Part shown: positions 3,861-25,865 of the stretch, piece by piece | How the letters are laid out: each line of letters starts with the position of its first letter | Position numbering within the stretch: the stretch's first letter is position 1 | From: a virus | Lineage: Duplodnaviria > Heunggongvirae > Uroviricota > Caudoviricetes | Strand: one strand, 5' to 3' | IMG/VR virus record: IMGVR_UViG_2582580933_000011 | Location: 1-25,865 of that record | DNA length: 25,865 bases | The notes under the pieces: model-generated | The model's database searches: none | What the model was told of the DNA's origin: nothing | What the model saw: only the letters and a program-made list of their open reading frames with translations | Made by a program: the position numbers and the translations under genes

Positions 3861-4025
3861 TAACGGACACAAAAATACCGCAATATCGGAAATCTGCGGT
3901 TGTCCGCACAATCATTCAGGCTGTCAAACCTGGTCGCAGAATTTGCTACGACGGCGGAACTATAAGCCTGAACGATTAAAAGGTCAATATGATGCGAAAA
4001 GATAGCATTCGTGACTTAAAAATAC

Positions 4026-4042
4026 AAATTTATTAGAGCATT
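4026..4042 (-). promoter_or_regulatory. C1-repressor operator-like 17-mer (Op51-like) upstream of the immI transcription unit
   Basis: Minus strand reads AATGCTCTAATAAATTT, 16/17 to the consensus ATTGCTCTAATAAATTT. The flanking sequence is also shared with the kilA site (plus 2343-2369 versus 4012-4040: ACTTA.AAAA..AAATTTATTAGAGCA). Confidence 0.6.
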
Positions 4043-4138
4043 GTTTGTTTAATAAATGCACAATTGGATCTAATAACCTCTTTTTTTTAAAGGCGAAAAT
4101 ATGTACCCTAAATGAGTTATAAGGCAGGTGAGGTTATA

Positions 4139-4630
4139 ATGAGAAAACTATTACTACCGTTATTATTTATGGCTGGGACTGTTAATGCAGCATCAAGCGT
4201 AAAGGAGATTTGTACCGATTATACGAAATACCTTGGGCACGTTTACGGATTTGCTGTCAGTGAAGACGAATCCATGCGCAAGAAGTTACTGTCAGATATG
4301 AAGCGCCTTAAACTTTCTGAAGCGATGGTGCAGCAGGAACTGTATAAAGTCTCAACCAACGCAAATGCTAAATACCAATATTCTCGCCTATTAAACCCCG
4401 ATGCAAATGAGATCAATCGAAGCACTTTCGATTATATGGTAAAGGCATGCGAAACCGCTCCTGATTTTGCTATCCCTAGCTGGGGTGTGCTGGTGGCGAG
4501 CAATGCCGTTAATAAAGAAGATGTTGGAAGAAATGGCATTGACTCAATCAGAAATGCCCCAGGAATGCGCCATCAAAACGTGCAGGGTACGCTTGAAGAA
4601 CGAGCCAGGGGGCCGGGTGTAGCTCCATAA
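4139..4630 (+). CDS. secreted (signal-peptide) protein with a C-terminal motif shared with the Sit protein
   Basis: ORF track 4112..4630. The likely start at ATG 4139 has GGTGAGG upstream and gives MRKLLLPLLFMAGTVNA|ASS, a signal peptide with an AxA-type cleavage site and no lipobox Cys. C-terminus NGIDSIRNAPGMRHQNVQGTLEERARGPG matches Sit segments. The body of the gene is AT-rich, the 3' end GC-richer. Confidence 0.6.
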   Translation: MRKLLLPLLFMAGTVNAASSVKEICTDYTKYLGHVYGFAVSEDESMRKKLLSDMKRLKLSEAMVQQELYKVSTNANAKYQYSRLLNPDANEINRSTFDYMVKACETAPDFAIPSWGVLVASNAVNKEDVGRNGIDSIRNAPGMRHQNVQGTLEERARGPGVAP

Positions 4631-13766: not shown

Positions 13767-14602
13767 TGCAACGTTCCTGGTTTAATAACCGGCTTACATC
13801 AGCGAAGCAAAAGTCATTGCTCTATAAATCATTGGCTGATTTGGTTCAGTCAATGATGGATACCTTTGTTGACCCATGGTTGGAGCGAATTACCAACCGG
13901 AAGTCTATTTTTTCCATGAGCAAGGAGGATCTGGAGACCAGGACAAATGAACTTGGCCAGTTCTTTACTATCAGAACGTCGAACTCATCTTCCGTTCCGA
14001 TGTTGTTACAACAGCGTCTTGATGAGATTCACTTTAAGGGGACTGAACGCCCTATAAACCAGACAATTTACCGCGAATTTAACGGTATTTCTGTTTTATG
14101 GGATCCGATATATGCACCGGTGGACCTTGAGCGCCATCCCTATGGCACGGTTCTAATACCAGAAAGCACACTGGAGACTACCGGCGGCACATTCGGCGAG
14201 ATGTTTCTGACTTCCAGAGGGATGATCAGTATTCCCATAAACGACCTGGCCCGGACAATGGGGATTACTGGCACGATAGATCAGTCCGCAATTACAGAAG
14301 AAATTCTCAGAAAGTTTAATCAGTTCGTAAAGCCTCTACTGCCACTGCATATAGTGTTTGATGGGCTTACGCTCTATTTGTCGGTTGTTGTAAATGAACA
14401 GGCCGACCTGATCACTTTGAACGAGATTTCTGATACCGAAAAAGCATTCTGCTGGTTTGAAACTTCGGATACAACTTCGCTTACTGGAGTTACGTCGATT
14501 AGCGCCCCGATCACCGCAACGCCTGGTGGCACTATTGTGAAAGCGACACCTACGTTTGATCGCACACGCGCAGATGATTTGTTGCTGGATAGCGACGCCT
14601 GA
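13763..14602 (+). CDS. baseplate/tail protein (279 aa)
   Basis: Start overlaps the upstream stop (ATGA). Last gene before the hairpin that separates the baseplate genes from the R-fibre-chaperone unit. Confidence 0.55.
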   Translation: MMQRSWFNNRLTSAKQKSLLYKSLADLVQSMMDTFVDPWLERITNRKSIFSMSKEDLETRTNELGQFFTIRTSNSSSVPMLLQQRLDEIHFKGTERPINQTIYREFNGISVLWDPIYAPVDLERHPYGTVLIPESTLETTGGTFGEMFLTSRGMISIPINDLARTMGITGTIDQSAITEEILRKFNQFVKPLLPLHIVFDGLTLYLSVVVNEQADLITLNEISDTEKAFCWFETSDTTSLTGVTSISAPITATPGGTIVKATPTFDRTRADDLLLDSDA

Positions 14603-14605
14603 CAA

Positions 14606-14630
14606 TCACCCCGTCCGCAGGGCGGGGTGA
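14606..14630 (+). terminator. GC-rich hairpin (11-bp stem, 3-nt loop) between baseplate gene and R-like gene; terminator or regulatory element
   Basis: TCACCCCGTCC gca GGGCGGGGTGA, followed by a pyrimidine-rich tract and a TACAAT -10-like hexamer at 14645-14650. Confidence 0.3.
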
Positions 14631-14680
14631 CAAGTTACTTCTCTTACAATGAGGCTTCACAACATTGATTAGGGAAAATC

Positions 14681-15115
14681 ATGTCTGACGTCTCAACAAA
14701 CCTCTATAAGAGTCAGTTGTTGGACTATTACTATCAGCGGCGCGCTGAATCGTCCATTAACAAAGGCTCTCGATTTTTAATCAGCAAGGCCGTTTTCGGT
14801 ACCAGTTCACTGGTTACTAAGAAAGGAGATGGCACTTATGAGATTGGAGAACTGCCAAAGGCTTTCGATCTGGCAGAACTGACCAGTCAATTTTGCACCA
14901 TCAACCTCGTCCCAACCTACTCAGGCGGGATAATTACTGTCCGAATGGACCTTGATCAAAGCCAGTTGCAGGAAGGGAAAAACTACCCATTCAACACTCT
15001 GGTTGTTCTGGATAACGAGAACAAGCCAATCGCCATTATTTGTGTCCAGGAAGACTCGCTGTATGTGGGCAAAACATATACCGCAGTTATGGCCATAAAC
15101 ACGACAACAGCATAA
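14681..15115 (+). CDS. R-like protein, first gene of the tail fibre unit (144 aa)
   Basis: ORF with AGGGAAAA upstream of the ATG. It precedes the fibre gene as gene R does in the P1 R-S-U operon (as recalled). Confidence 0.55.
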
Positions 15116-15126
15116 GGATATGCTTG

Positions 15127-17583
15127 ATGAATGACGTTACAGTTGTTACATCAGTTACTTACCCATCACCCGAGTCGTTGGCTCTGGTGGCTGATGTGCA
15201 ATACCACGAACCATATCTGTCAGCCGCGCTAAACCGAAAATTCAGGGGGATTGTTGACCCGGGATTTTATGCCGGTTTCTTACCTAAGCCTGGCGGTGGG
15301 ATGAACCTGTTAATCACCTCTGTGGATGGTGATAAAACTGCTGGCGCAGCGTCAGTGGATATTGGTGAATTCTACCAGGTAACTATTCAGCATCGTAAGG
15401 ATATTTCTCTTGCACTTAGCGCCGGTAAGAAATATGCAATTGTGCTGAAGGGAAGATACCTCCTTGGAGAGGATACCTATCAGGTTAATACCGCGTCACA
15501 TATTCATGCGGCTGAATTTGTTACCAGAACCTATACCGATTCATATCAGTTAGGAGATGGGGAGCTGCTTGTTTGTACGGTGAATATCCCTGCTGGCGTA
15601 TCAGCCATTACCCAGGAGATGATTGATACATCCGAGCGTATTAACCGCACGATCGGCATTGATATTTCAGACTCTGTAACCAGTAGCAGAAGTGATGTTG
15701 CTGCAAGTTCGCTGGCAGTTAAAAAAGCCTACGATCTGGCGAAAAGCAAGTATACGGCGCAGGATGCAAGCACAACGCAAAAGGGATTAGTTCAGCTCAG
15801 TAGCGAAACTAACAGCGATAGCGAAACAATGGCGGCTACCCCTAAAGCCGTTAAGTCTGTAAAAGATCTTGCTGATACCAAAGCGCCAATAGAAAGCCCG
15901 AGTCTGACAGGAACGCCAACCGCGCCGACGGCGGCGCAAGGTACAAACAGCACACAGATCGCAAATACAGCCTTTGTTAAGGCAGCTATAACTGCACTTA
16001 TCAACGGTGCACCTGGCACACTGGATACACTTAAAGAAATAGCTGCTGCGATCAATAACGACCCGAATTTCAGCACAACTATCAACAATGCTCTGGCCCT
16101 TAAAGCGCCTTTAGCAAGTCCTGCATTAACGGGAATACCTACTGCGCCTACCGCTGCACAGGGTACGAATAACACGCAGATTGCTACGACCGCTTATGTA
16201 AGAGCTGCCATATCCGCATTGGTTGGTTCATCACCAGAAGCTCTTGATACCCTGAATGAGCTTGCCGCAGCACTTGGCAATGACCCGAACTTTGCGACAA
16301 CAATGACAAATGCGCTGGCAGGTAAACAGCCTCTGGATGCAACTTTAACCGCTCTCGCTGCCCTTGCGACTGGTGCAAACAAACTGCCTTATTTCACTGG
16401 TAAGGATACGGTAGCTCAGACTGATTTAACGTCAGTCGGTCGCGATATTCTGGCTAAAACAAGCACACTGGCCGTTATCCAATACCTTGGTTTAAGAGAA
16501 CTCGGAACAAGCGGTGAAAAGATCCCCCTGTTGAGCACGGCTAACACATGGAGTGCACGCCAGACTTTCAACGGCGGGATCACCGGGGCGCTGACAGGGA
16601 ACGCCGATACCGCGACGAAATTGAAAACAGCCAGAAACATTAATGGCGTCAGGTTCGATGGTTCTACGAACATTTCGATACCAACAATTACGTCTAGAGG
16701 ACGCGTTACTGCGCTTACCGGTACAACGCAAGGTGCTGCTACTGGATTGCAGATGTATGAGGCATACAACAATGGCTACCCAACAGCTTATGGTAATGTG
16801 CTTCATCTCACTGGTGCAGCCGCAGTAGGAGAGGGTGAATTACTTATTGGCTGGAGTGGAACCAGCGGCGCTCATGCTCCTGCGTATATTCGTTCGCGGC
16901 GGGATACGACCGACGCAAACTGGTCGCCGTGGGCGCAGCTTTACACGTCGGCCCATCCTCCGGCAGAGTTTTATCCAGTCGGCGCCCCAATCCCGTGGCC
17001 TTCTGATGTAGTACCTACAGGTTATGCTATTATGCAGGGGCAAACTTTTGATAAGTCTGCATACCCAAAACTTGCAGTAGCGTATCCATCTGGTGTGATC
17101 CCTGATATGCGTGGCTGGACAATCAAGGGCAAACCCGCCAGTGGTCGTGCTGTATTGTCTCAGGAACAGGACGGTATTAAATCGCACACCCACAGCGCAA
17201 GTGCATCAAGTACTGATTTGGGAACGAAAACAACCAGTTCGTTTGATTACGGGACAAAAACAGTCAGCACGTTTAACCACGGCACAAAAACAACAAACAA
17301 TACAGGAGCGCATACGCACACTGTCGGTGGTCGCTATGGTGGTGACTCCATCGGGAGTAAACAACGCGTACAGGTATCAGGAACCAACCAGGTGTCAAGC
17401 TCTGCCGGAGCACATGCCCATACTGTCGATATTGGTCAGCATAACCACACCGTAGGTATTGGTGCCCATGCACACACTTTGGCATTGGGTGCGCACGGAC
17501 ATACCATCACGGTTAACGCTACTGGTAATGCGGAAAACACCGTAAAAAACATTGCATATAACTATATTGTGAGACTTGCATGA
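15127..17583 (+). CDS. tail fibre protein (S-like), 818 aa
   Basis: Start chosen at ATG 15127 (AAGGA 8 nt upstream; the 15040 start would overlap the R-like gene). Two tandem phage-fibre repeats ([28 protein letters not shown]... and [28 protein letters not shown]...). C-terminal His-box repeats [33 protein letters not shown]. Confidence 0.85.
15895..16330 (+). repeat. intragenic tandem repeat (two approx 65-codon phage tail-fibre repeat units) within the fibre gene
   Basis: Protein-level repeat. The two DNA copies are diverged, so this is an ancient structural repeat, not a recent duplication. Confidence 0.6.
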
Positions 17584-18449
17584 TTAATTTAATTCTTTCA
17601 GCACCAGTACCTGAAATGGCTGAGGCATTTAAGCGGGTATTTGCAAATGCAGATAATGTGAATATTGTCGGTCAACCATTTGAAACAATCAGAGAATTTG
17701 ACTGCATGGTCAGTGCGGCAAACAGTTTCGGGCTAATGGATGGCGGCGTTGACGCTGCCATTACTGCATTCTTTGGTACTCAGTTACAGACACGTGTTCA
17801 GAATCATATTCTTCGTGAATATCTTGGTGAGCAGCCTGTAGGCACTGCATTTGTTATTGAAACGGGGGATAACAACCATCCCTGGCTGGTACATGCGCCA
17901 ACAATGCGCGTTCCGCTGACCATTGACGGAACAGACGCTGTATATAACGCCACGTGGGCCGCTCTGCTTGCCATCTTTCAGCACAATAAAAATGCAACGA
18001 CAGACAGGAAAATAAAAACGGTGGTATTACCTGCAATGGGGGCCGGATGTGGTCAGGTGCCGTTTGAAAGTGTTACCCGGCAGATGAAGCTGGCATGGGA
18101 TAATTTTAATAAAAAAACAGAATCAATTAACTGGGAATATGCATATTCCCGCCAGTGGGCGGTATTTAACACATGTGCATACTGCCCCGGTAAATCTGGT
18201 TGTCGTTATGCTGATATTAAATATATTGGATGTGGCGATTACCGTACGTATTGCTTACGGTCAGGGCAGGTATGTATTAACCCTGAACATCAGGTTGATG
18301 ACGTGCTGACTAATAATCGCTCTCGCCCGGGAGCACATATACACCAGATTAATCCGGTAAAACCCGTAGGTAACGTTACCATTGGCGCACACAGCCACGG
18401 AAGGAATATCACCATTGGTGCTCATTCCCATACAACCAATAAACAATAA
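17580..18449 (+). CDS. macro-domain protein with Cys-rich linker and C-terminal tail-fibre-tip-like His-box repeats
   Basis: 289 aa. Start overlaps the fibre stop (ATGA at 17580-17583). Macro-domain motifs: [67 protein letters not shown] (compare E. coli YmdB VDVIVNAAN..GGGGVDGAIHRAAG, HTVGP, VAFPAISTGVYG). C-terminus [24 protein letters not shown] resembles the fibre tip. Confidence 0.8.
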
Positions 18450-18473
18450 TTCTGTCTCTGACATTAAGTAGAG

Positions 18474-19058
18474 GTGAACATGACTTTCAGAATGAGTGCT
18501 GAAGCACAAACCATTCGCGTATTTAATTATCTCGATGGTTCAAATGAATTTATTGGAGAAAGTGATGCCTATATTCCACCACATACAGGGCTTCCGGCAA
18601 ACAGCACAGATATTGCTCCTCCTGAGATTCCAGCTGGTTTTGCCGCTATATTCGACACAACCAGAAACTTATGGAATTTAATAGAGGACCATAGAGGAAA
18701 AACTGTTTATCACACTGAAACAGGTGACGCCAAAACTATATCTAAATTAGGCGCTTTGCCTGAGGATGTTACGTGCATTCCCCCTGATGATGAGTATCAG
18801 AAGTGGAGTGGAAATCAATGGGTTACGGACGATGAAGCGAAGCGTCAAGCACAGATAAGCTATGCAAACTCAAAGAAAGATGAGTTGTTAAAATACGCAA
18901 GCGTAAAGATAGCGATCTTACAAGATGCTGTTGATTTATGTATTGCAACAGATGAAGAGAAAGTTTTATTAAATGAATGGAAAAAATACAGAGTTCTTGT
19001 AAATAGGTTAAATGAAGATGATATCATTCAAATGAAAGTCCCTGAAACACCAGTTTGA
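18474..19058 (+). CDS. tail fibre assembly chaperone (Tfa/U-like)
   Basis: 194 aa. GAGGTGA RBS. N-terminal region typical of Tfa proteins (RVFNYLDGSNEFIGESDAYIPPHTGLPANSTDIAPPEIPAGF...). Last gene of the fibre unit. Confidence 0.8.
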   Translation: MNMTFRMSAEAQTIRVFNYLDGSNEFIGESDAYIPPHTGLPANSTDIAPPEIPAGFAAIFDTTRNLWNLIEDHRGKTVYHTETGDAKTISKLGALPEDVTCIPPDDEYQKWSGNQWVTDDEAKRQAQISYANSKKDELLKYASVKIAILQDAVDLCIATDEEKVLLNEWKKYRVLVNRLNEDDIIQMKVPETPV

Positions 19059-19069
19059 TTTATATTAAT

Positions 19070-19104
19070 AAGCCACTGTTGACAGGACTGTTTTACAGTG
19101 GCTT
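19070..19104. terminator. bidirectional intrinsic terminator between convergent tail-fibre operon and glycosyltransferase gene
   Basis: Perfect 10-bp stem AAGCCACTGT / ACAGTGGCTT with a 15-nt loop, followed by GTTTTATTAT on the plus strand and an AT-rich tract on the minus strand. Confidence 0.55.
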
Positions 19105-19110
19105 GTTTTA

Positions 19111-20259
19111 TTATCTAAACCAATTTTCTAGAACATTTTCAAATTTATGGGTAACTTGCCACCATAAATAGTTCTCTAATACATATTTTTTTCCGTTATT
19201 TGCAATTTGTTCTAATTTTTCGGAATGTAATGTTTCATATATATCACTAGCTAAACTTTCTGGCAACATTGGTTCATTTATATGAAATCCTGTATGGTTA
19301 TTTTTTACAAATTCAACCATTCCACCTCGAGTGCTAACTAAAACGGGTCTTCCTGCCCCCATAGCTTCTATAGCAACCATGCAGAACGGTTCTTGAAACT
19401 GAGATGGGATTACAACTAGATCGGCTATAGGATAGTAACGGTACATATCATCTGGTTTTACCCCGCCAACAAGATGACAGCGCGAACCAATAGTTCCAGC
19501 AAGTTCCCTTACTTGTTTTTGATATGCAGCTTTTTCTCCTTTATCTTTATTATTGTAGTCACCAACAACTACAAGTTCTATATTGTCACATGATTTTATC
19601 AATTTTTTAAACGCTTGTAATAGTAAAACAGTCCCTTTTTCAGGGGAGATCCTTCCCGCATAAAAGATAACTTTTTTCTCAGAGGGAATACCTAAATCTT
19701 GTTTTGTTAGCGGGGGTAGTTCTTTATCTAGATTGTGTAGTTCTGTACCATTAGGAACTATACAAATTTCAGCGTCAGGAAGATGTTTTTCATAAAAATC
19801 CTTTAAATACTGACTTGGAACAAGCATTTTCACATTGCTATCTAGCCCTTTCGGTGTAAAGGCATTATGCATATGCATTATCATTTTTGCGTCAGGAGCT
19901 TTCTCTCTAATTTGACGATAAAGTTTCATGCTGTTATGAACAATAATAATGCTATCGTTTGTGATATTGAAATCTTTAGCAATGTTTAACACTCTTTGTG
20001 AATATGGAATAGGATCTATTCTGCTCCATTTTTGAAATATCCGTTTATAAAGACGGCTAAACCCTATTCTATGGATAGAACATCGCTCATTAACAATATC
20101 TTTTTCTGAGAAACCATCCTCTCGAATGCATGCTATACGATTTGGTATTCTTGTTCTCTTTGCGACTTGATATATCCAAGTTTCAACAGCTGCTGCGCCA
20201 CGAGGTGGTATTGAAAATATTGGTGTAACTGTAAATATTAATTTGTCAATCATGAGCAA
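19111..20259 (-). CDS. glycosyltransferase, GT-B fold (GT4/RfaG-like family)
   Basis: 382 aa. C-terminal GT4 signature (VVVGDYNNK ... FCMVAIEAMGAGRPVLVSTRGGMVEFV). Very AT-rich. Start overlaps the acetyltransferase gene by 14 nt. Confidence 0.8.
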   Translation of the reverse strand: MLMIDKLIFTVTPIFSIPPRGAAAVETWIYQVAKRTRIPNRIACIREDGFSEKDIVNERCSIHRIGFSRLYKRIFQKWSRIDPIPYSQRVLNIAKDFNITNDSIIIVHNSMKLYRQIREKAPDAKMIMHMHNAFTPKGLDSNVKMLVPSQYLKDFYEKHLPDAEICIVPNGTELHNLDKELPPLTKQDLGIPSEKKVIFYAGRISPEKGTVLLLQAFKKLIKSCDNIELVVVGDYNNKDKGEKAAYQKQVRELAGTIGSRCHLVGGVKPDDMYRYYPIADLVVIPSQFQEPFCMVAIEAMGAGRPVLVSTRGGMVEFVKNNHTGFHINEPMLPESLASDIYETLHSEKLEQIANNGKKYVLENYLWWQVTHKFENVLENWFR

Positions 20260-20797
20260 CTATCCTCTTATAATCTTTTCCCTTTAAATATTTTTTTAGG
20301 GTTGCAGGAGAGCCTGCATACATTGTATTAGCAGGAACATCAGTATTTACAACGCTATTTGCAGCTATAACACTATTGTCTCCTATTTTTACACCTGGTA
20401 GCACAGTTGTATTTGCCCCAATCCAAACATTACGGCCTATTTTTATTGGAGCGCAAATTGTTTCTTTGGGACGTTTGCTTGGTGTTAGTGGATGCGTGAC
20501 AGTTGTTAATACAACGTTGGGACCAATGGCAGAGTTACATCCAATATCTATTGTTTTTGCATCGAGAAAAACACAATTTGCGTTAATGAAGACATTTTTA
20601 TCAATAATTATATTGCCATTCTCAAAATAAAATGGAGCTGTTATTGTTGAGTCTTCACTTACTTTAACTCCTGTTTTTTTTAATGTGATTAATTTTTTTC
20701 TTTTTGAGATTAGGGTATAATTAAATATATGTCTTGCTTTCTTTGCTTTCTTTTTTTGAAAAATTATATAGAAATAATATGTTAACAAATCAAACAT
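20246..20797 (-). CDS. hexapeptide-repeat (left-handed beta-helix) sugar O-acetyltransferase-like protein
   Basis: 183 aa with tandem hexapeptide repeats (VFINANCVFLDAKTIDIGCNSAIGPNVVL ... VWIGANTTVLPGVKIGDNSVIAANSVV) as in maltose/galactoside/WcaB-type acetyltransferases. AT-rich. The true start may be internal. Confidence 0.75.
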   Translation of the reverse strand: MFDLLTYYFYIIFQKKKAKKARHIFNYTLISKRKKLITLKKTGVKVSEDSTITAPFYFENGNIIIDKNVFINANCVFLDAKTIDIGCNSAIGPNVVLTTVTHPLTPSKRPKETICAPIKIGRNVWIGANTTVLPGVKIGDNSVIAANSVVNTDVPANTMYAGSPATLKKYLKGKDYKRIVAHD

Positions 20798-20821
20798 TGT
20801 TGTTTTACTTCCATTTAAAAT

Positions 20822-21151
20822 TTAACTATCAAATGTGGCGCCTATTTCTCGCATTTTGTTAAGTATGGTGTTTATTTCATTGCTACCGAGAGAAGTTTGG
20901 GCAGCCATGAAAAAAAGTATGTGCAATGACATAGATCTGTTATTTTCTTTGTTTATATATTTTCTCCACTGGCTATCGCTGCTGATCCCGGCTAGTTCTG
21001 CCATTTGATTCCCTGTATACCCAAGCATTTCTTTGAATTGATGCAAATCTTGTGATTTGGGGGGGGTGTAGTTGTTTATTAACCTCATATTAAACCCATT
21101 ATTGGTAAGCTTTCGTTGGTGGAATGGTAGCACCAATGGAGCTACTGTCAA
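20822..21151 (-). CDS. small hypothetical protein, possible HTH DNA-binding regulator
   Basis: 109-aa ORF upstream of, and co-oriented with, the acetyltransferase and glycosyltransferase genes. Segment TGNQMAELAGISSDSQWRKYI is HTH-like. Start ambiguous (internal Met at residue 22). Confidence 0.4.
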   Translation of the reverse strand: MTVAPLVLPFHQRKLTNNGFNMRLINNYTPPKSQDLHQFKEMLGYTGNQMAELAGISSDSQWRKYINKENNRSMSLHILFFMAAQTSLGSNEINTILNKMREIGATFDS

Positions 21152-21278
21152 GCGTCTTTTCTTTATAAATATAGGGAACCATCAAAATCTGACATCAATT
21201 ATCTATCGAAATATTTTGAATGACTGGTGAGAAGTTACTTTGCATACCATTACCTCCTGACAACGTAGGAGGGAACTT

Positions 21279-21608
21279 GTGCTTGACACACAGGAATTAG
21301 CTCCAGTTGCTATTGCGCTCCTGCTTTCAGTAATTGGTGGGATAGGCACGTTCCTGATGGATGTCCGAGACGGTCGCCAGTCTGGCAATTTGTTGGGATT
21401 GGTTACGGAGATCTTTGTTGCAGTGACAGCTGGCGCGGTGGCGTACCTATTGGGGCAACACGAGGGCTGGGAGTTATCAATTACGTACTTAATGGTAACG
21501 ATAGCCAGCAATAACGGTCATGAGGTGATTTCAGGGATGAAACGAGTGAATATCGATAGCATTCTGAATGTTCTTACAAGTTTGGTGAAAAAGGGAGGTG
21601 GGAAATGA
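21279..21608 (+). CDS. lydA: holin (LydA-like)
   Basis: 109 aa, GTG start with AGGAGGG 5 nt upstream. Two to three TM helices and a charged C-terminal tail (KKGGGK). First gene of an operon containing a DarA-like gene, as in the P1 darA operon (as recalled). Confidence 0.6.
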   Translation: MLDTQELAPVAIALLLSVIGGIGTFLMDVRDGRQSGNLLGLVTEIFVAVTAGAVAYLLGQHEGWELSITYLMVTIASNNGHEVISGMKRVNIDSILNVLTSLVKKGGGK

Positions 21609-22638: not shown

Positions 22639-24558
22639 ATGGAACAGTTCAATATCAATAAAGGGGTGACGATCAAGCCTGGGCTTGACGTACTTCCCCC
22701 GCCAGTGACTGATGATGAATATCGCGCATTAATGGCCGGAGAGGACCGCTATCTGATGACGGAATCCAACACCCTGGAGGAAATCGAGGCTACGTTCTTC
22801 TATGACACGCCGATCCACTGGTGTGCTACGGATTTACTGGAGGCGATTAGTTCTACTCGTTTGCAGTTACACCGGACCATGCAGGCATTTGTCCGGGTAT
22901 TGAACCAGAAGCTGAATGGTACCGGAATCTCTGCGGGGAGTGATAAAACGGGGGATGTGGCCCAGAGCGGCGCGCGAGCGATCGGCGGCGCTGAAATTGG
23001 CCGGGCACGTAACGTTAACGGGCTGCCGGTCCTGCCAGCCATTATCCCGCTCAGTGATGGTCAGACTATCAGCATTCTGTTTCATAGCCCGACAGCGGAA
23101 AACCGGATCACCAATAGCGATACGCTGGTTGCTTTCCAGTTCTTACTGAATAAAAAAGACGTTACTCACACCGTTGCTCCGATGAGTGGACGTGATATGA
23201 CGCTGGCGCAGGTCACCATGAAACTTGCCAACCTTGCAGAGAAAAACTCGGCAAAATTCCAGCGTGCGCAGAAGAAGAAAAAAGCCCTGGTTGATGAAAT
23301 AACCCAACTACAGACTGACAGTGACCAGAAAGAGGATGCCATGAGCGACCTCGCGGATCAGGTGGCAGCGGTAGAAGGCCAGAAGGCAGATCTGGAGCAG
23401 AAAATTAACGCGGTTGCTTCGGAAGCAGATTCTCTTTATCAAGAAAATGAGCGTTTGCAGGCGGAGATTGATCAGCTCAATCGCACTGGTGGGCGCGATA
23501 CCATTGCTCCAGCGGGGATGACTGGTGGGCACTCTCGCGCGCTGACGGATCGCCTTGCCAGCATCAAAAATCGTATGCATATGAACGGGGAAGTGACGCT
23601 CAGTAATGGTGCATCAATGAAGCAATTCATTGGGGATGGCGAAGGGTATATCCAGTTAACCGATTCGGATGGCAGCGTGTACATGATCAAGGCTAAATCC
23701 ATACAGGGTGTGGACATGGCAGATGCGATCGGCAAGCTGTTTAAAGCCTATAAAGCGGGTAATGTATCGGAATACCTGGTCCAACCAGAAGAACATAAAC
23801 CGGAAAACGTCGAACCTGAACCAGCGGAGGATACCGGTAGCTCTTCGCCTGAACCAGAAGTCTCTGTAGGTGCATATCGATATGCCCTGCATATGCGTCC
23901 GGCGGCCCCTGGCGCAATACCTGAAGGTAACAAAGCAATTCTGCCGCGCCCTGATGAAGGTGACCCGTATTATGAATATGCACGCTACGGCATTGCTACT
24001 TACGATACCCCGCTTTCTGATCAGCAAATGAGTGAGTACGACCTGAAGTTATTGCCTCGCGAGGATTCTTTCGACTTCCTGGCGAAGACACTTACTAATG
24101 GTCCGTTTGGCAAATATGCACAAAAAGCTCTGGAGCTGGCCACCAACTCACCAGACGAGTTCCGCGTAATGCTGAAAACTCAGTTTCAAAAAACATTCCC
24201 CAACATTGCGTTTCCGGGGGGCGCTGGCACCGAGAAAATGGTGCAGAGCATGATCAAGGCATTGCAGGCCGAAGTCGGTGAGATTACTCAACCAGAACCG
24301 GTCCCGGCACAGCCTGATGAAACGGTTAGCGAAGCAGATGCAGAGGCTAATAAAGCCATTGAATATCTCAATAGCGTGATGGATATGCAAAGCACTGACA
24401 TGGCGGAGATCCGTAACGCCCGGGGCAATGTCCGGGAAGCGATTGCTGCCCTTCAGGCTGCCGGACGTTTTGAGGAAAACGAAGAGCTGGTTAACGGTGC
24501 TGCTCGCCACCTGGCTGATCTGCTGGTAGCAATCCAGAAAGCGGGGGTAGCGGCATGA
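22639..24558 (+). CDS. darA: DarA-like protein (virion-associated antirestriction/head protein candidate), 639 aa
   Basis: Size and position after the holin/antiholin pair match P1 darA as recalled. Central coiled-coil region (QLQTDSDQKEDAMSDLADQVAAVEGQKADLEQKINAVASEADSLYQENERLQAEIDQL). No sequence-level confirmation possible here. Confidence 0.5.
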   Translation: MEQFNINKGVTIKPGLDVLPPPVTDDEYRALMAGEDRYLMTESNTLEEIEATFFYDTPIHWCATDLLEAISSTRLQLHRTMQAFVRVLNQKLNGTGISAGSDKTGDVAQSGARAIGGAEIGRARNVNGLPVLPAIIPLSDGQTISILFHSPTAENRITNSDTLVAFQFLLNKKDVTHTVAPMSGRDMTLAQVTMKLANLAEKNSAKFQRAQKKKKALVDEITQLQTDSDQKEDAMSDLADQVAAVEGQKADLEQKINAVASEADSLYQENERLQAEIDQLNRTGGRDTIAPAGMTGGHSRALTDRLASIKNRMHMNGEVTLSNGASMKQFIGDGEGYIQLTDSDGSVYMIKAKSIQGVDMADAIGKLFKAYKAGNVSEYLVQPEEHKPENVEPEPAEDTGSSSPEPEVSVGAYRYALHMRPAAPGAIPEGNKAILPRPDEGDPYYEYARYGIATYDTPLSDQQMSEYDLKLLPREDSFDFLAKTLTNGPFGKYAQKALELATNSPDEFRVMLKTQFQKTFPNIAFPGGAGTEKMVQSMIKALQAEVGEITQPEPVPAQPDETVSEADAEANKAIEYLNSVMDMQSTDMAEIRNARGNVREAIAALQAAGRFEENEELVNGAARHLADLLVAIQKAGVAA

Positions 24559-24920: not shown

Positions 24921-25865
24921 CATCCTCCACGCCCCGAAGGGCGTGGATTCCTGCTACGTTCAGGCTGTCGCCTGAATCATTTCGGTGGGTTCCTGCTTCA
25001 ACGGGCGGCCTGACTGCACCATCCCTCCACAGGCAAGTACGGCGTGCCCCGCCGCTAAAATGTTACGAGCGCCGTTTACATCGGCGTTCGCTGTATATCC
25101 ACATACCTGGCATCTGAATTTACTTTGTGACAGGCGATTTTCTTTCGCTGTATGACCACAGCACGCGCAACGCTGGCTTGTGTACGCTGGCGGAACAGCA
25201 AGCACCTGACCGCCACGCCAGAGCTGCTTGTACTCAAGCTGGCGGCGCATTTCATACCAGCCCTGATCCAGTATCGAACGGTTTAAACCTGATTTTGCCC
25301 GGACATTGCGACCCGGATGACTTATCGTTCCCGCCGCTGACTTTGACATGTATTTAACCTTCAAATCCTCAATGACAATCATTGCGTGGTTTTTGCTGAC
25401 GGTCGTTGTGACTTTGTGAAGGTAGTCCCTGCGGATATTTGCGATACGGGAATGCAGTCGCTGTATTTTGCGTTTCTGCTTCTGCCAGTTGTTGCTGAAT
25501 TTGACCTTGCGGCTTAACTGTCGCTGAAGTCTCGCCAGCTTCTTCTGGTTTTTCTGAAAACTATTTACAGGTTCAAAGACTGTGCCATCTGACAGCGTGG
25601 CGAGTTTAGCCACGCCAGCATCCAGTCCGACCATTGATGCTGAAGGGTGAACAGGAGTGGATACCTCTCTTTCTGTCTGAATACTGATGTACCACTTACC
25701 GCAGGACTGGCTGACAGTAACATTTTTCACAATACCCGTGACCTGACGGCTATTCCGGTAGCGCATCCAGCCAAGTTTCGGCAGAAAAATACGGCTGTTT
25801 TCCTGATCGAGCTTAACACCCTGCGGGTAGCGGAATGCATCATTCTGTCCCCGCTTTTTGAATCG
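24921..25865 (-). mobile_element. IS200/IS605-family insertion sequence, right end plus tnpB (continues beyond the window)
   Basis: TnpB ORF plus a subterminal GC-rich hairpin (CCACGCCC cgaa GGGCGTGG, 24927-24946) directly after the tnpB stop and abutting the stop codon of the upstream phage gene. Confidence 0.75.
24960..25865 (-). CDS. tnpB: TnpB (IS605 OrfB-type RuvC-like nuclease with C-terminal zinc finger); N-terminus lies beyond window end
   Basis: Manual extension of the frame to the window edge gives ...[64 protein letters not shown]..., the conserved central TnpB region. C-terminal CxxC...CxxC ([37 protein letters not shown]). Confidence 0.9.

Follow-up and report, generated by a model that had tools for sequence, protein, structure and literature searches.

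A macro-domain gene in the tail fibre cassette of a P1-like prophage

The stretch of DNA analysed here, called the window, is a 25,865-nucleotide piece of a tailed phage (Caudoviricetes; IMG/VR virus record IMGVR_UViG_2582580933_000011), and the gene in question encodes a 289-aa protein between a tail fibre gene and the gene of a Tfa-type tail-fibre assembly chaperone. The protein is made of three parts: a Macro2-type macro domain, a small Cys-rich module, and a tail that, judged from sequence alignment, is a homologue of the final HxH stretch in the neighbouring fibre. Its gene is an accessory passenger of the fibre-tip cassette of lambda Stf/Tfa (T4 gp37/gp38) type, a cassette that recombination spreads through the P1-like, P2-like and lambdoid phages of Enterobacterales. 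The features of the protein are as follows.

17580..18449, + strand: macro-domain protein, 289 aa, ATG start, PHROG 2613
17580..18164, + strand: Macro2-type (Ymx7/YMR087W-like) macro domain, residues 1-195, with N48-x6-GG-V-D58, H105 and the G154-x-G-x-G158 loop
18174..18275, + strand: Cys-rich mini-domain, residues 199-232, pattern AYC-x4-6-C ... T-x-C-x6-C
18330..18431, + strand: fibre-type HxH tail, residues 251-284, three GAHxH boxes

The macro domain

A preliminary description made from the sequence alone had located the open reading frame (ORF) at 17580-18449, with an ATG overlapping the fibre stop, and had read a macro fold into its N-terminal part. The frame and its start are where they were placed, and the two checks proposed for the fold, a profile search and a monomer structure prediction, both agree with it. 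The Pfam profile PF01661 (Macro) is matched over its whole length (positions 1-118) by residues 44-169, with E=2.6e-18 and 66.5 bits for a cut-off of 22, and the conserved domain extends beyond the Pfam span, over about residues 1-195. The profile of PHROG 2613, a family listed as of unknown function, aligns residues 1-261 with its positions 1-266 of 274 (E=8.3e-138). An AlphaFold2 monomer, predicted with a 114-homologue alignment, has pLDDT values above 95 for residues 1-200 and adopts the three-layer alpha/beta macro fold. Comparing this model with the PDB, Foldseek returned 205 matches at E<=0.001; each of the 50 best is a macro domain, a design based on one (hydrolases) or a fusion with one (a carrier), and the top match is yeast Ymx7 (1njr, E=3.6e-11).

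The relationship to Ymx7 (YMR087W), an ADP-ribose-1''-monophosphatase, was also found at the profile level: the 114-sequence family profile matches 1njr over nearly the whole domain (E=1.3e-18), far ahead of MacroD/YmdB, macroH2A, DarG and PARP14. At about 21% identity the two proteins share the N-x6-GG-x-D motif, a His after strand 4 and the G-x-G-x-G phosphate loop, and these residues align with counterparts in Ymx7 that we take to be numbered N80, D90 and H145. The yeast protein has neither the Cys module nor the HxH tail, and it is a cellular enzyme tied to tRNA-splicing by-products, whereas the window protein is the product of a phage late gene. The positions that are invariant or nearly so in 114 members of the clade (N48, S49, G51, G56, D58, G83-E84, G88, P107-T108-M109-R110, G158 and others) are all kept in the window protein. 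The Asp of 'FDC', a residue that binds adenine in characterised macro domains, is present too. By profile, predicted fold and conserved residues, the domain is thus classed as a bona fide Macro2-type module, which is probably active or at least ligand-binding. The sole studied member of the Macro2-type clade is YMR087W, which converts ADP-ribose 1''-monophosphate (Appr-1''-p) to ADP-ribose and is reported to lack activity against mono-ADP-ribosylated targets (de-MARylating activity) (PMC6397177). An exhaustive search of representative sequences gave 2,351 clusters at E<=0.001, mostly standalone proteins of about 200 aa covering residues 1-195, together with some fusions to WD40, RRM, Hpt or dual-specificity phosphatase domains.

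Two other assignments were tried and rejected. A MacroD-type or YmdB-type O-acetyl-ADP-ribose deacetylase is not supported by the NCBIfam models, the best equivalog reaching 48.5 bits for a cut-off of 246 and the O-acetyl-ADP-ribose deacetylase models 19-30 bits for cut-offs of 200-271. A DarG-type antitoxin received a marginal PADLOC score (13.4 bits, E=0.0098), and the neighbours of the gene are the fibre and Tfa genes, not DarT. The fibre families of Pfam and PHROG gave no match with the macro ORF, whose N-terminus is the macro domain, with no shaft, collar, receptor-binding tip or attachment region, and the chaperone profile Caudo_TAP (PF02413) gave none either.

The Cys module and the fibre-type tail

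The six-Cys linker and the GAHxH ending that had been noticed beforehand were both recovered. The cysteines are residues 199, 202, 208, 218, 225 and 232; in an alignment of 53 homologues, drawn from Escherichia, Salmonella, Citrobacter, Enterobacter and Erwinia, those at 202, 208, 225 and 232 are invariant or nearly so, while 199 and 218 vary. The mini-domain that they define is probably a zinc-binding beta module. The monomer models show the Cys region as a small beta sheet (pLDDT 66-83) and the HxH tail as disordered, and residues 191-289, modelled alone with the family alignment, again yield a low-confidence small beta sheet and a disordered tail. Such predicted disorder would suit a segment whose folding requires a metal-bridged trimer, though it is no proof of one.

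The tail has the boxes GAHIHQ, GAHSHG and GAHSHT, with their HxH at residues 253-255, 271-273 and 282-284. Practically every full-length homologue has at least one GxHxH box after the Cys pattern; sequence and length of the tail vary strongly, the homologues being 253-300 aa long with one to three boxes. Boxes and four cysteines are kept down to about 45-60% C-terminal identity across the same five genera, despite their changing surroundings. The elements of the fibre cassette with which the tail has to be compared are listed here.

15127..17583, + strand: tail fibre, 818 aa, Pfam Phage_fiber_2 and Collar, PHROG 454
17311..17502, + strand: HxH needle segment of the fibre, residues 729-792, four boxes with a 9-residue period
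17580..17583, + strand: ATGA, overlap of fibre stop and macro start (GC-ATGA in the sequence), probable translational coupling
18480..19058, + strand: tail-fibre assembly chaperone of lambda Tfa / T4 gp38 type, Pfam Caudo_TAP (E=5e-31), PHROG 105

The fibre combines an N-terminus of the P1 S type with a C-terminal tip of the lambda Stf / T4 gp37 type, and its last 227 aa are 60-90% identical to the tips of lambda, T4-like, P2-like and Gifsy phages. Its real start is the ATG at 15127, not the TTG at 15040 given in the ORF list. Its boxes lie at residues 729, 763, 772, 781 and 790, the last four with a 9-residue spacing. Residues 227-285 of the macro protein are colinear with residues ~736-793 of this fibre (37% identity, pairwise E=1e-5), and the match with the fibre of phage STYP1 is better still (43% identity, E=3e-7); repeated motifs can inflate these scores, but the alignment also includes the 25 residues ahead of the first box. 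On this evidence we regard the macro tail and the final HxH stretch of the neighbouring fibre as homologous. A recent gene conversion of the tail by the fibre repeats, or the reverse, was considered and rejected, DNA identity being just 80% over 20 nt; this weak similarity at the DNA level indicates that the duplication is old.

In its GxHxH boxes and its ~60 colinear residues, the macro tail resembles the needle of T4 gp37 and lambda Stf, and several Salmonella-type tails even have the 9-residue period of the fibre needle (e.g. IGAHAHGVEIGAHGH and IGAHTHTIDIGAHNH). It differs from these fibre tips in having no shaft, collar or tip domain and in missing the post-box segment ITVNATGN...NYIVRLA; in the window protein, moreover, the boxes are spaced by 18 and 11 residues instead of 9. 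In the tip of the T4 gp37 trimer, iron is coordinated by HxH pairs from three chains (summarised in PMC11705849). A tblastn search of phages with residues 176-289 found the Cys/HxH module attached solely to this macro family; a large protein search with residues 195-289 returned two fragments, and a PDB sequence search with the C-terminus gave no match.

The junction between fibre and chaperone genes

The preliminary description had called the macro protein co-translated with the fibre. The ATGA overlap behind this statement is there, and the wording goes too far: the two genes are probably translationally coupled. At the other end, 30 nt separate the macro gene from the chaperone gene, whose start is likely the ATG at 18480, preceded by a GAGG, rather than the GTG at 18474; the resulting N-terminus, MTFRMS..., resembles what we take to be that of lambda Tfa.

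The gene had also been described as an extra one between fibre and chaperone, and two empty sites bear this out: in the P1-like phage JL22 and the P2-like phage STYP1 the same fibre tip is followed directly by tfa. There the junction reads GCATAATG, in which the fibre TAA overlaps the tfa ATG, a coupling of the same type, and occupied junctions read GCATGATT. The macro gene is therefore an optional insertion exactly at the stf/tfa junction, where it has taken over the coupled start. A programmed frameshift producing a fibre-macro fusion was rejected: the macro frame is -1 relative to that of the fibre, yet the sequence ...ACTTGCATGA holds no slippery heptamer and the ATG is conserved.

Upstream, the operon opens with the following gene.

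14681..15115, + strand: P1 gpR-like gene, first of the R-fibre-macro-Tfa late operon, PHROG 2032, E=7e-85

Searching positions 14500-21300, we found no promoter or terminator signals above the shuffled expectation. On this basis the R, fibre, macro and Tfa genes are taken to form one late operon.

Distribution and accessory status

A word-indexed protein search gave 2,249 matches at E<=1e-5. NCBI calls the close ones listed 'macro domain-containing protein' or 'phage tail protein', and among the weaker ones there are presumably standalone macro domains belonging to the wider clade. The order fibre-macro-Tfa was found in the P2-like phages Chuche (94% aa identity) and SEN4/SEN5 (71%), in the lambdoid prophage Gifsy-1 of S. 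Typhimurium LT2 (68%), whose gene STM2588.1n is already annotated as containing pfam01661, and in a P2-like E. coli prophage and a lambdoid prophage of E. coli ST131. The preliminary description had known of no such tail-fibre module, and this claim to novelty does not stand, the same gene occupying the same position in Gifsy-1, SEN4/SEN5, Chuche and ST131 prophages, forming PHROG 2613 and being represented by thousands of named database proteins.

The survey of related phages suggested at that stage found the gene at this position in 80 of the 80 IMG/VR loci retrieved. In all of them the macro gene starts exactly where a fibre tip of this type ends, and wherever the locus extends far enough a Tfa homologue lies within a few tens of bases 3' of the macro gene; in L085 the sequence ends ~80 nt past the macro gene, which leaves the Tfa position out of view. 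Among complete E. coli genomes, 128 of 5,426 have the gene, as 108 chromosomal and 22 plasmid copies. A scan of one genome per species detected it only in E. coli, in Erwinia, both with the same gene order, and in a probably misassigned metagenome-assembled genome, for which reason the tailed form appears to be confined to Enterobacterales.

The fibre tip itself, of lambda Stf / T4 gp37 type, is found in 428 phage records (lambda, T4-like phages, Gifsy-2 and Fels-1 are among them), and the full macro gene in 6 of these. Since most phages with this tip do without the gene, it is accessory.

Among more distant phages, a general link between macro domains and tail genes was rejected: phiRSL1 ORF054, P106B gp77 and Noxifer gp265 are standalone macro genes with no fibre-like tail, located among non-structural genes. 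The products of these genes, from jumbo and other phages and listed together with PHROG 14717, go by the names 'tail protein' or 'tail assembly-like', which appear to have been copied from the enterobacterial family. The only distant gene near a structural one is that of Microcystis phage Mae-JY35 (L090, 3435-3992), a standalone macro gene with 40% identity over 139 aa; its start overlaps the end of an upstream 486-aa gene, and a peptidase-S74 structural (fibre-like) protein is encoded two genes downstream. Here a macro domain may have become associated with a tail module independently.

Two chimeric database proteins, P0024 (463 aa, a ParM/StbA-like N-terminus joined to the macro protein) and P0265 (190 aa, a lysozyme-like fragment joined to the macro C-terminus), are probably recombination or assembly artefacts. 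On the 3' side of Tfa, the slot is a hot spot for morons: in the lambdoid ST131 prophage (L006, 6609-8508) it holds a reverse transcriptase and a SLATT-domain gene, likely a defence system, and in the P2-like prophage (L005, 6522-7094) and JL22 (L092, 4758-5234) serine O-acetyltransferases.

Selection and mosaicism

Ratios of nonsynonymous to synonymous substitution rates (dN/dS) were calculated by pairwise Nei-Gojobori comparison with 56 distinct homologous genes, with dS values up to 0.4-0.7. The three segments gave the following ranges.

Residues 1-195, macro domain: dN/dS 0.08-0.13
Residues 196-245, Cys module: dN/dS 0.15-0.28
Residues 246-289, HxH tail: dN/dS 0.25-0.42

All three are under purifying selection, the tail less tightly, and the constraint on the tail argues against its being merely vestigial.

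Comparison with Chuche (L001, 8001-8870) gave a dS of 0.27 for codons 1-195 and 0.03 for codons 196-289, which places a recombination breakpoint inside the macro gene. The C-terminal modules of the two proteins are identical, whereas identity is 74-79% between the fibre tips and 65% between the Tfa proteins. The low C-terminal dS next to diverged tips and chaperones indicates that the C-terminal module was exchanged on its own; it shows no co-variation with any given tip or Tfa allele. Truncated variants of 255 aa exist. Salmonella phage SEN34 (L004, ~4001-4210) retains part of the macro C-terminus as a pseudogene, YASARQNAVFSTTAYCPSK...IGAHSHAKRN*, which adjoins an O-acetyltransferase gene downstream of this phage's own, unrelated fibre/Tfa pair and partly overlaps a 'hypothetical protein' annotated in another frame.

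Proposed function and alternatives

We tentatively propose, at somewhat less than an even chance, that the protein is a late-expressed intracellular hydrolase of an ADP-ribose derivative, trimerised by its fibre-like tail and acting in counter-defence. It would be made late, in step with the fibre. The HxH tail would form a metal-bridged trimer as fibre needles do, which is suggested by the homology of the motifs; trimerisation may use the same Tfa chaperone and may hold the enzyme near assembling fibres. The macro domain would act inside the infected cell on a 1''-substituted ADP-ribose derivative, most likely one produced by NAD+-based anti-phage immunity, either a signal derived from TIR or SIR2 proteins or an ADP-ribosyl adduct.

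An intracellular role is favoured because the protein has the ligand-binding residues of cellular enzymes, because ADP-ribose derivatives occur in the cytoplasm, and because fibres stay outside the cell, so that an enzyme borne by them could not reach such substrates. Counter-defence is favoured because phage macro domains have been argued to counter mainly soluble ADP-ribose immune signals, some being encoded among morphogenesis genes (Iyer et al. 2022, PMC9503650), and because a 2026 preprint ties sensitivity to type II Thoeris, which signals by His-ADPR, to side tail fibres and their chaperones. Several points weigh on the other side. Late expression is unusual for counter-defence, and the only documented activity of the Macro2 clade is a housekeeping one, de-MARylating activity being reported as lacking (PMC6397177). 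The trimer and its dependence on Tfa are suggested by motif homology, and the tail is disordered in the predicted monomers. Homologues in other phages are tail-less and lie among non-structural genes, so the link with the fibre could be historical rather than functional. In the literature we found no experiment on this macro family.

The preliminary description had put forward two hypotheses, an enzymatic or ligand-binding module at the fibre tip and a virion-borne macro domain acting against host defences. The second fits less well than an anti-defence role inside the producing cell, because side and long fibres remain outside the cell and an enzyme bound to them would not be delivered. The first, in which the HxH tail would dock a macro trimer on the distal fibre or on tip-bound Tfa, so that the virion displays a protein binding or modifying a surface molecule, in the manner of the T2-type gp38 adhesin or of esterase-bearing tailspikes, we consider rather unlikely. 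It would account for the synteny kept at every surveyed locus, for a selected tail derived from a fibre needle, and for the hypervariability of this tail in sequence and box number, as is often seen in receptor-facing parts; moreover, the slot after the fibre gene encodes tip-bound proteins in other phages. However, the macro domain keeps all clade-invariant residues, including the adenine-binding Asp, with a dN/dS of ~0.1, which argues for an intracellular ligand of ADP-ribose type, and we know of no ADP-ribose-like surface structure in Enterobacterales. The HxH sites of the T4 gp37 needle are filled by three fibre chains, leaving no evident docking site, and the Chuche comparison speaks against co-variation with a presumed partner. 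No virion proteomics covering the macro protein was found in the literature.

The intracellular hydrolase can also be given a more specific, and as such unlikely, form as a late-stage immune antagonist. Assembling side or long tail fibres and their chaperone would be sensed by some NAD+-based systems, as has been reported for type II Thoeris, the 1''-ADP-ribose-derivative hydrolase would share one translational unit with this trigger, and the piece of needle would trimerise the enzyme with Tfa at or near the trigger, so that the signal is destroyed at its source. A variant in which the trimer stays on the fibre tip as a virion-displayed enzyme is less likely.

A quite unlikely alternative is an enzyme of fibre maturation or housekeeping, which would free the fibre, Tfa or a further late protein of ADP-ribosyl groups, or clear an ADP-ribose metabolite that disturbs assembly, and would be needed in some hosts only. 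The coupling of the gene to the fibre gene ahead of Tfa agrees with such a role, as do its presence in a minority of the phages with this tip and a fibre-like tail able to direct the enzyme to nascent fibres. But ADP-ribosylation of tail fibres is not known, the Macro2 representative is reported to lack de-MARylating activity (PMC6397177), and most phages with the same tip and Tfa type assemble their fibres with no macro gene. Finally, it is about as unlikely that the gene is a passenger recombined into the fibre 3' end and hitch-hiking between fibre 3' and tfa 5' ends with its HxH tail as leftover frame: the tail homology, the conserved flanks permitting gain and loss by homologous recombination, the 255-aa variants, the SEN34 remnant and the breakpoint within the gene are what one would expect, but tail and Cys module show purifying selection (dN/dS 0.15-0.42 at dS up to 0.7), and boxes and four cysteines persist across five genera at ~45-60% C-terminal identity.

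Comparison with known systems

The closest relatives, Gifsy-1 STM2588.1n, SEN4/SEN5 gp19 and Chuche CDS0053, share with the window gene PHROG 2613, 68-94% identity, the three-part architecture, the ATGA overlap and the position between fibre and Tfa. Their genomes are lambdoid or P2-like, whereas the window is from a P1-like plasmid prophage; tail length and box number (one to three) differ, and in Gifsy-1 and SEN5 the macro 3' end overlaps tfa by 11 nt instead of being separated from it by a 30-nt spacer. DarG-like orphan antitoxins of phages, directed against DarTG, are a precedent for a phage macro domain that, as has been proposed or shown, undoes a host defence based on ADP-ribose (PMC11825919, PMC11481870, PMC13309987), but they belong to another macro clade and have neither a link to tail fibres nor a Cys/HxH extension. 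The gene of the T2/S16-type gp38 adhesin likewise comes immediately after that of the distal fibre, where other phages have the chaperone gene. This adhesin has no sequence or predicted fold similarity with the window protein; it uses Gly-rich motifs and hypervariable loops and no enzyme domain.

The sequence of the gene and its annotation were thus known already. In the literature found by combining macro domains with tail fibres, its three-part architecture, its fibre-derived tail, its fixed position in the cassette and its function are not described. Phage macro domains are increasingly recognised as counter-measures to immunity based on NAD+ or ADP-ribose, and those that have been characterised are not linked to tail fibres. 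The present family is distinct in being fused to a copy of a fibre needle and locked in a fibre-chaperone cassette, with which it passes from phage to phage, whether P1-like, P2-like or lambdoid; Gifsy-1 of Salmonella LT2 and E. coli ST131 prophages are among its carriers. Should the tail target or oligomerise the enzyme, cargo would be attached to fibre assembly in a new way; should the enzyme clear an immune signal that is elicited when fibres assemble, trigger and antidote would be joined in one operon. Engineered host-range swaps of 'fibre tip plus Tfa' cassettes would carry or lose the macro gene unnoticed.

The replicon and neighbouring genes

The source of the window is a P1-like plasmid prophage with Ant, a Sit-like transglycosylase protein, a baseplate protein, gpR, lydA/B-like genes, hdf and darA. 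Plasmids of ~92-124 kb from E. coli and E. fergusonii match the window at 98-99% identity, and similar ones from E. albertii at ~95%.

Downstream of Tfa, on the - strand at 19111-20797, are genes for an LPS N-acetylglucosaminyltransferase (NCBIfam NF012028, 658 bits for a cut-off of 618) and a hexapeptide-repeat acetyltransferase, with low GC contents of 0.35 and 0.32 for a window value of 0.46. They hold the place at which, as we take the P1 layout to be, the rest of the invertible C segment and cin would lie, and are probably lysogenic-conversion genes that alter the lipopolysaccharide (LPS) core, the P1 receptor. A 109-aa ORF adjoining them (20822-21151, - strand) looks by its sequence like a helix-turn-helix regulator. 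Finally, a transposase gene (24960-25766, - strand; PHROG 12300, E=7e-125) is located directly after darA (22639-24558) and may interrupt the P1 dar (defence against restriction) operon.

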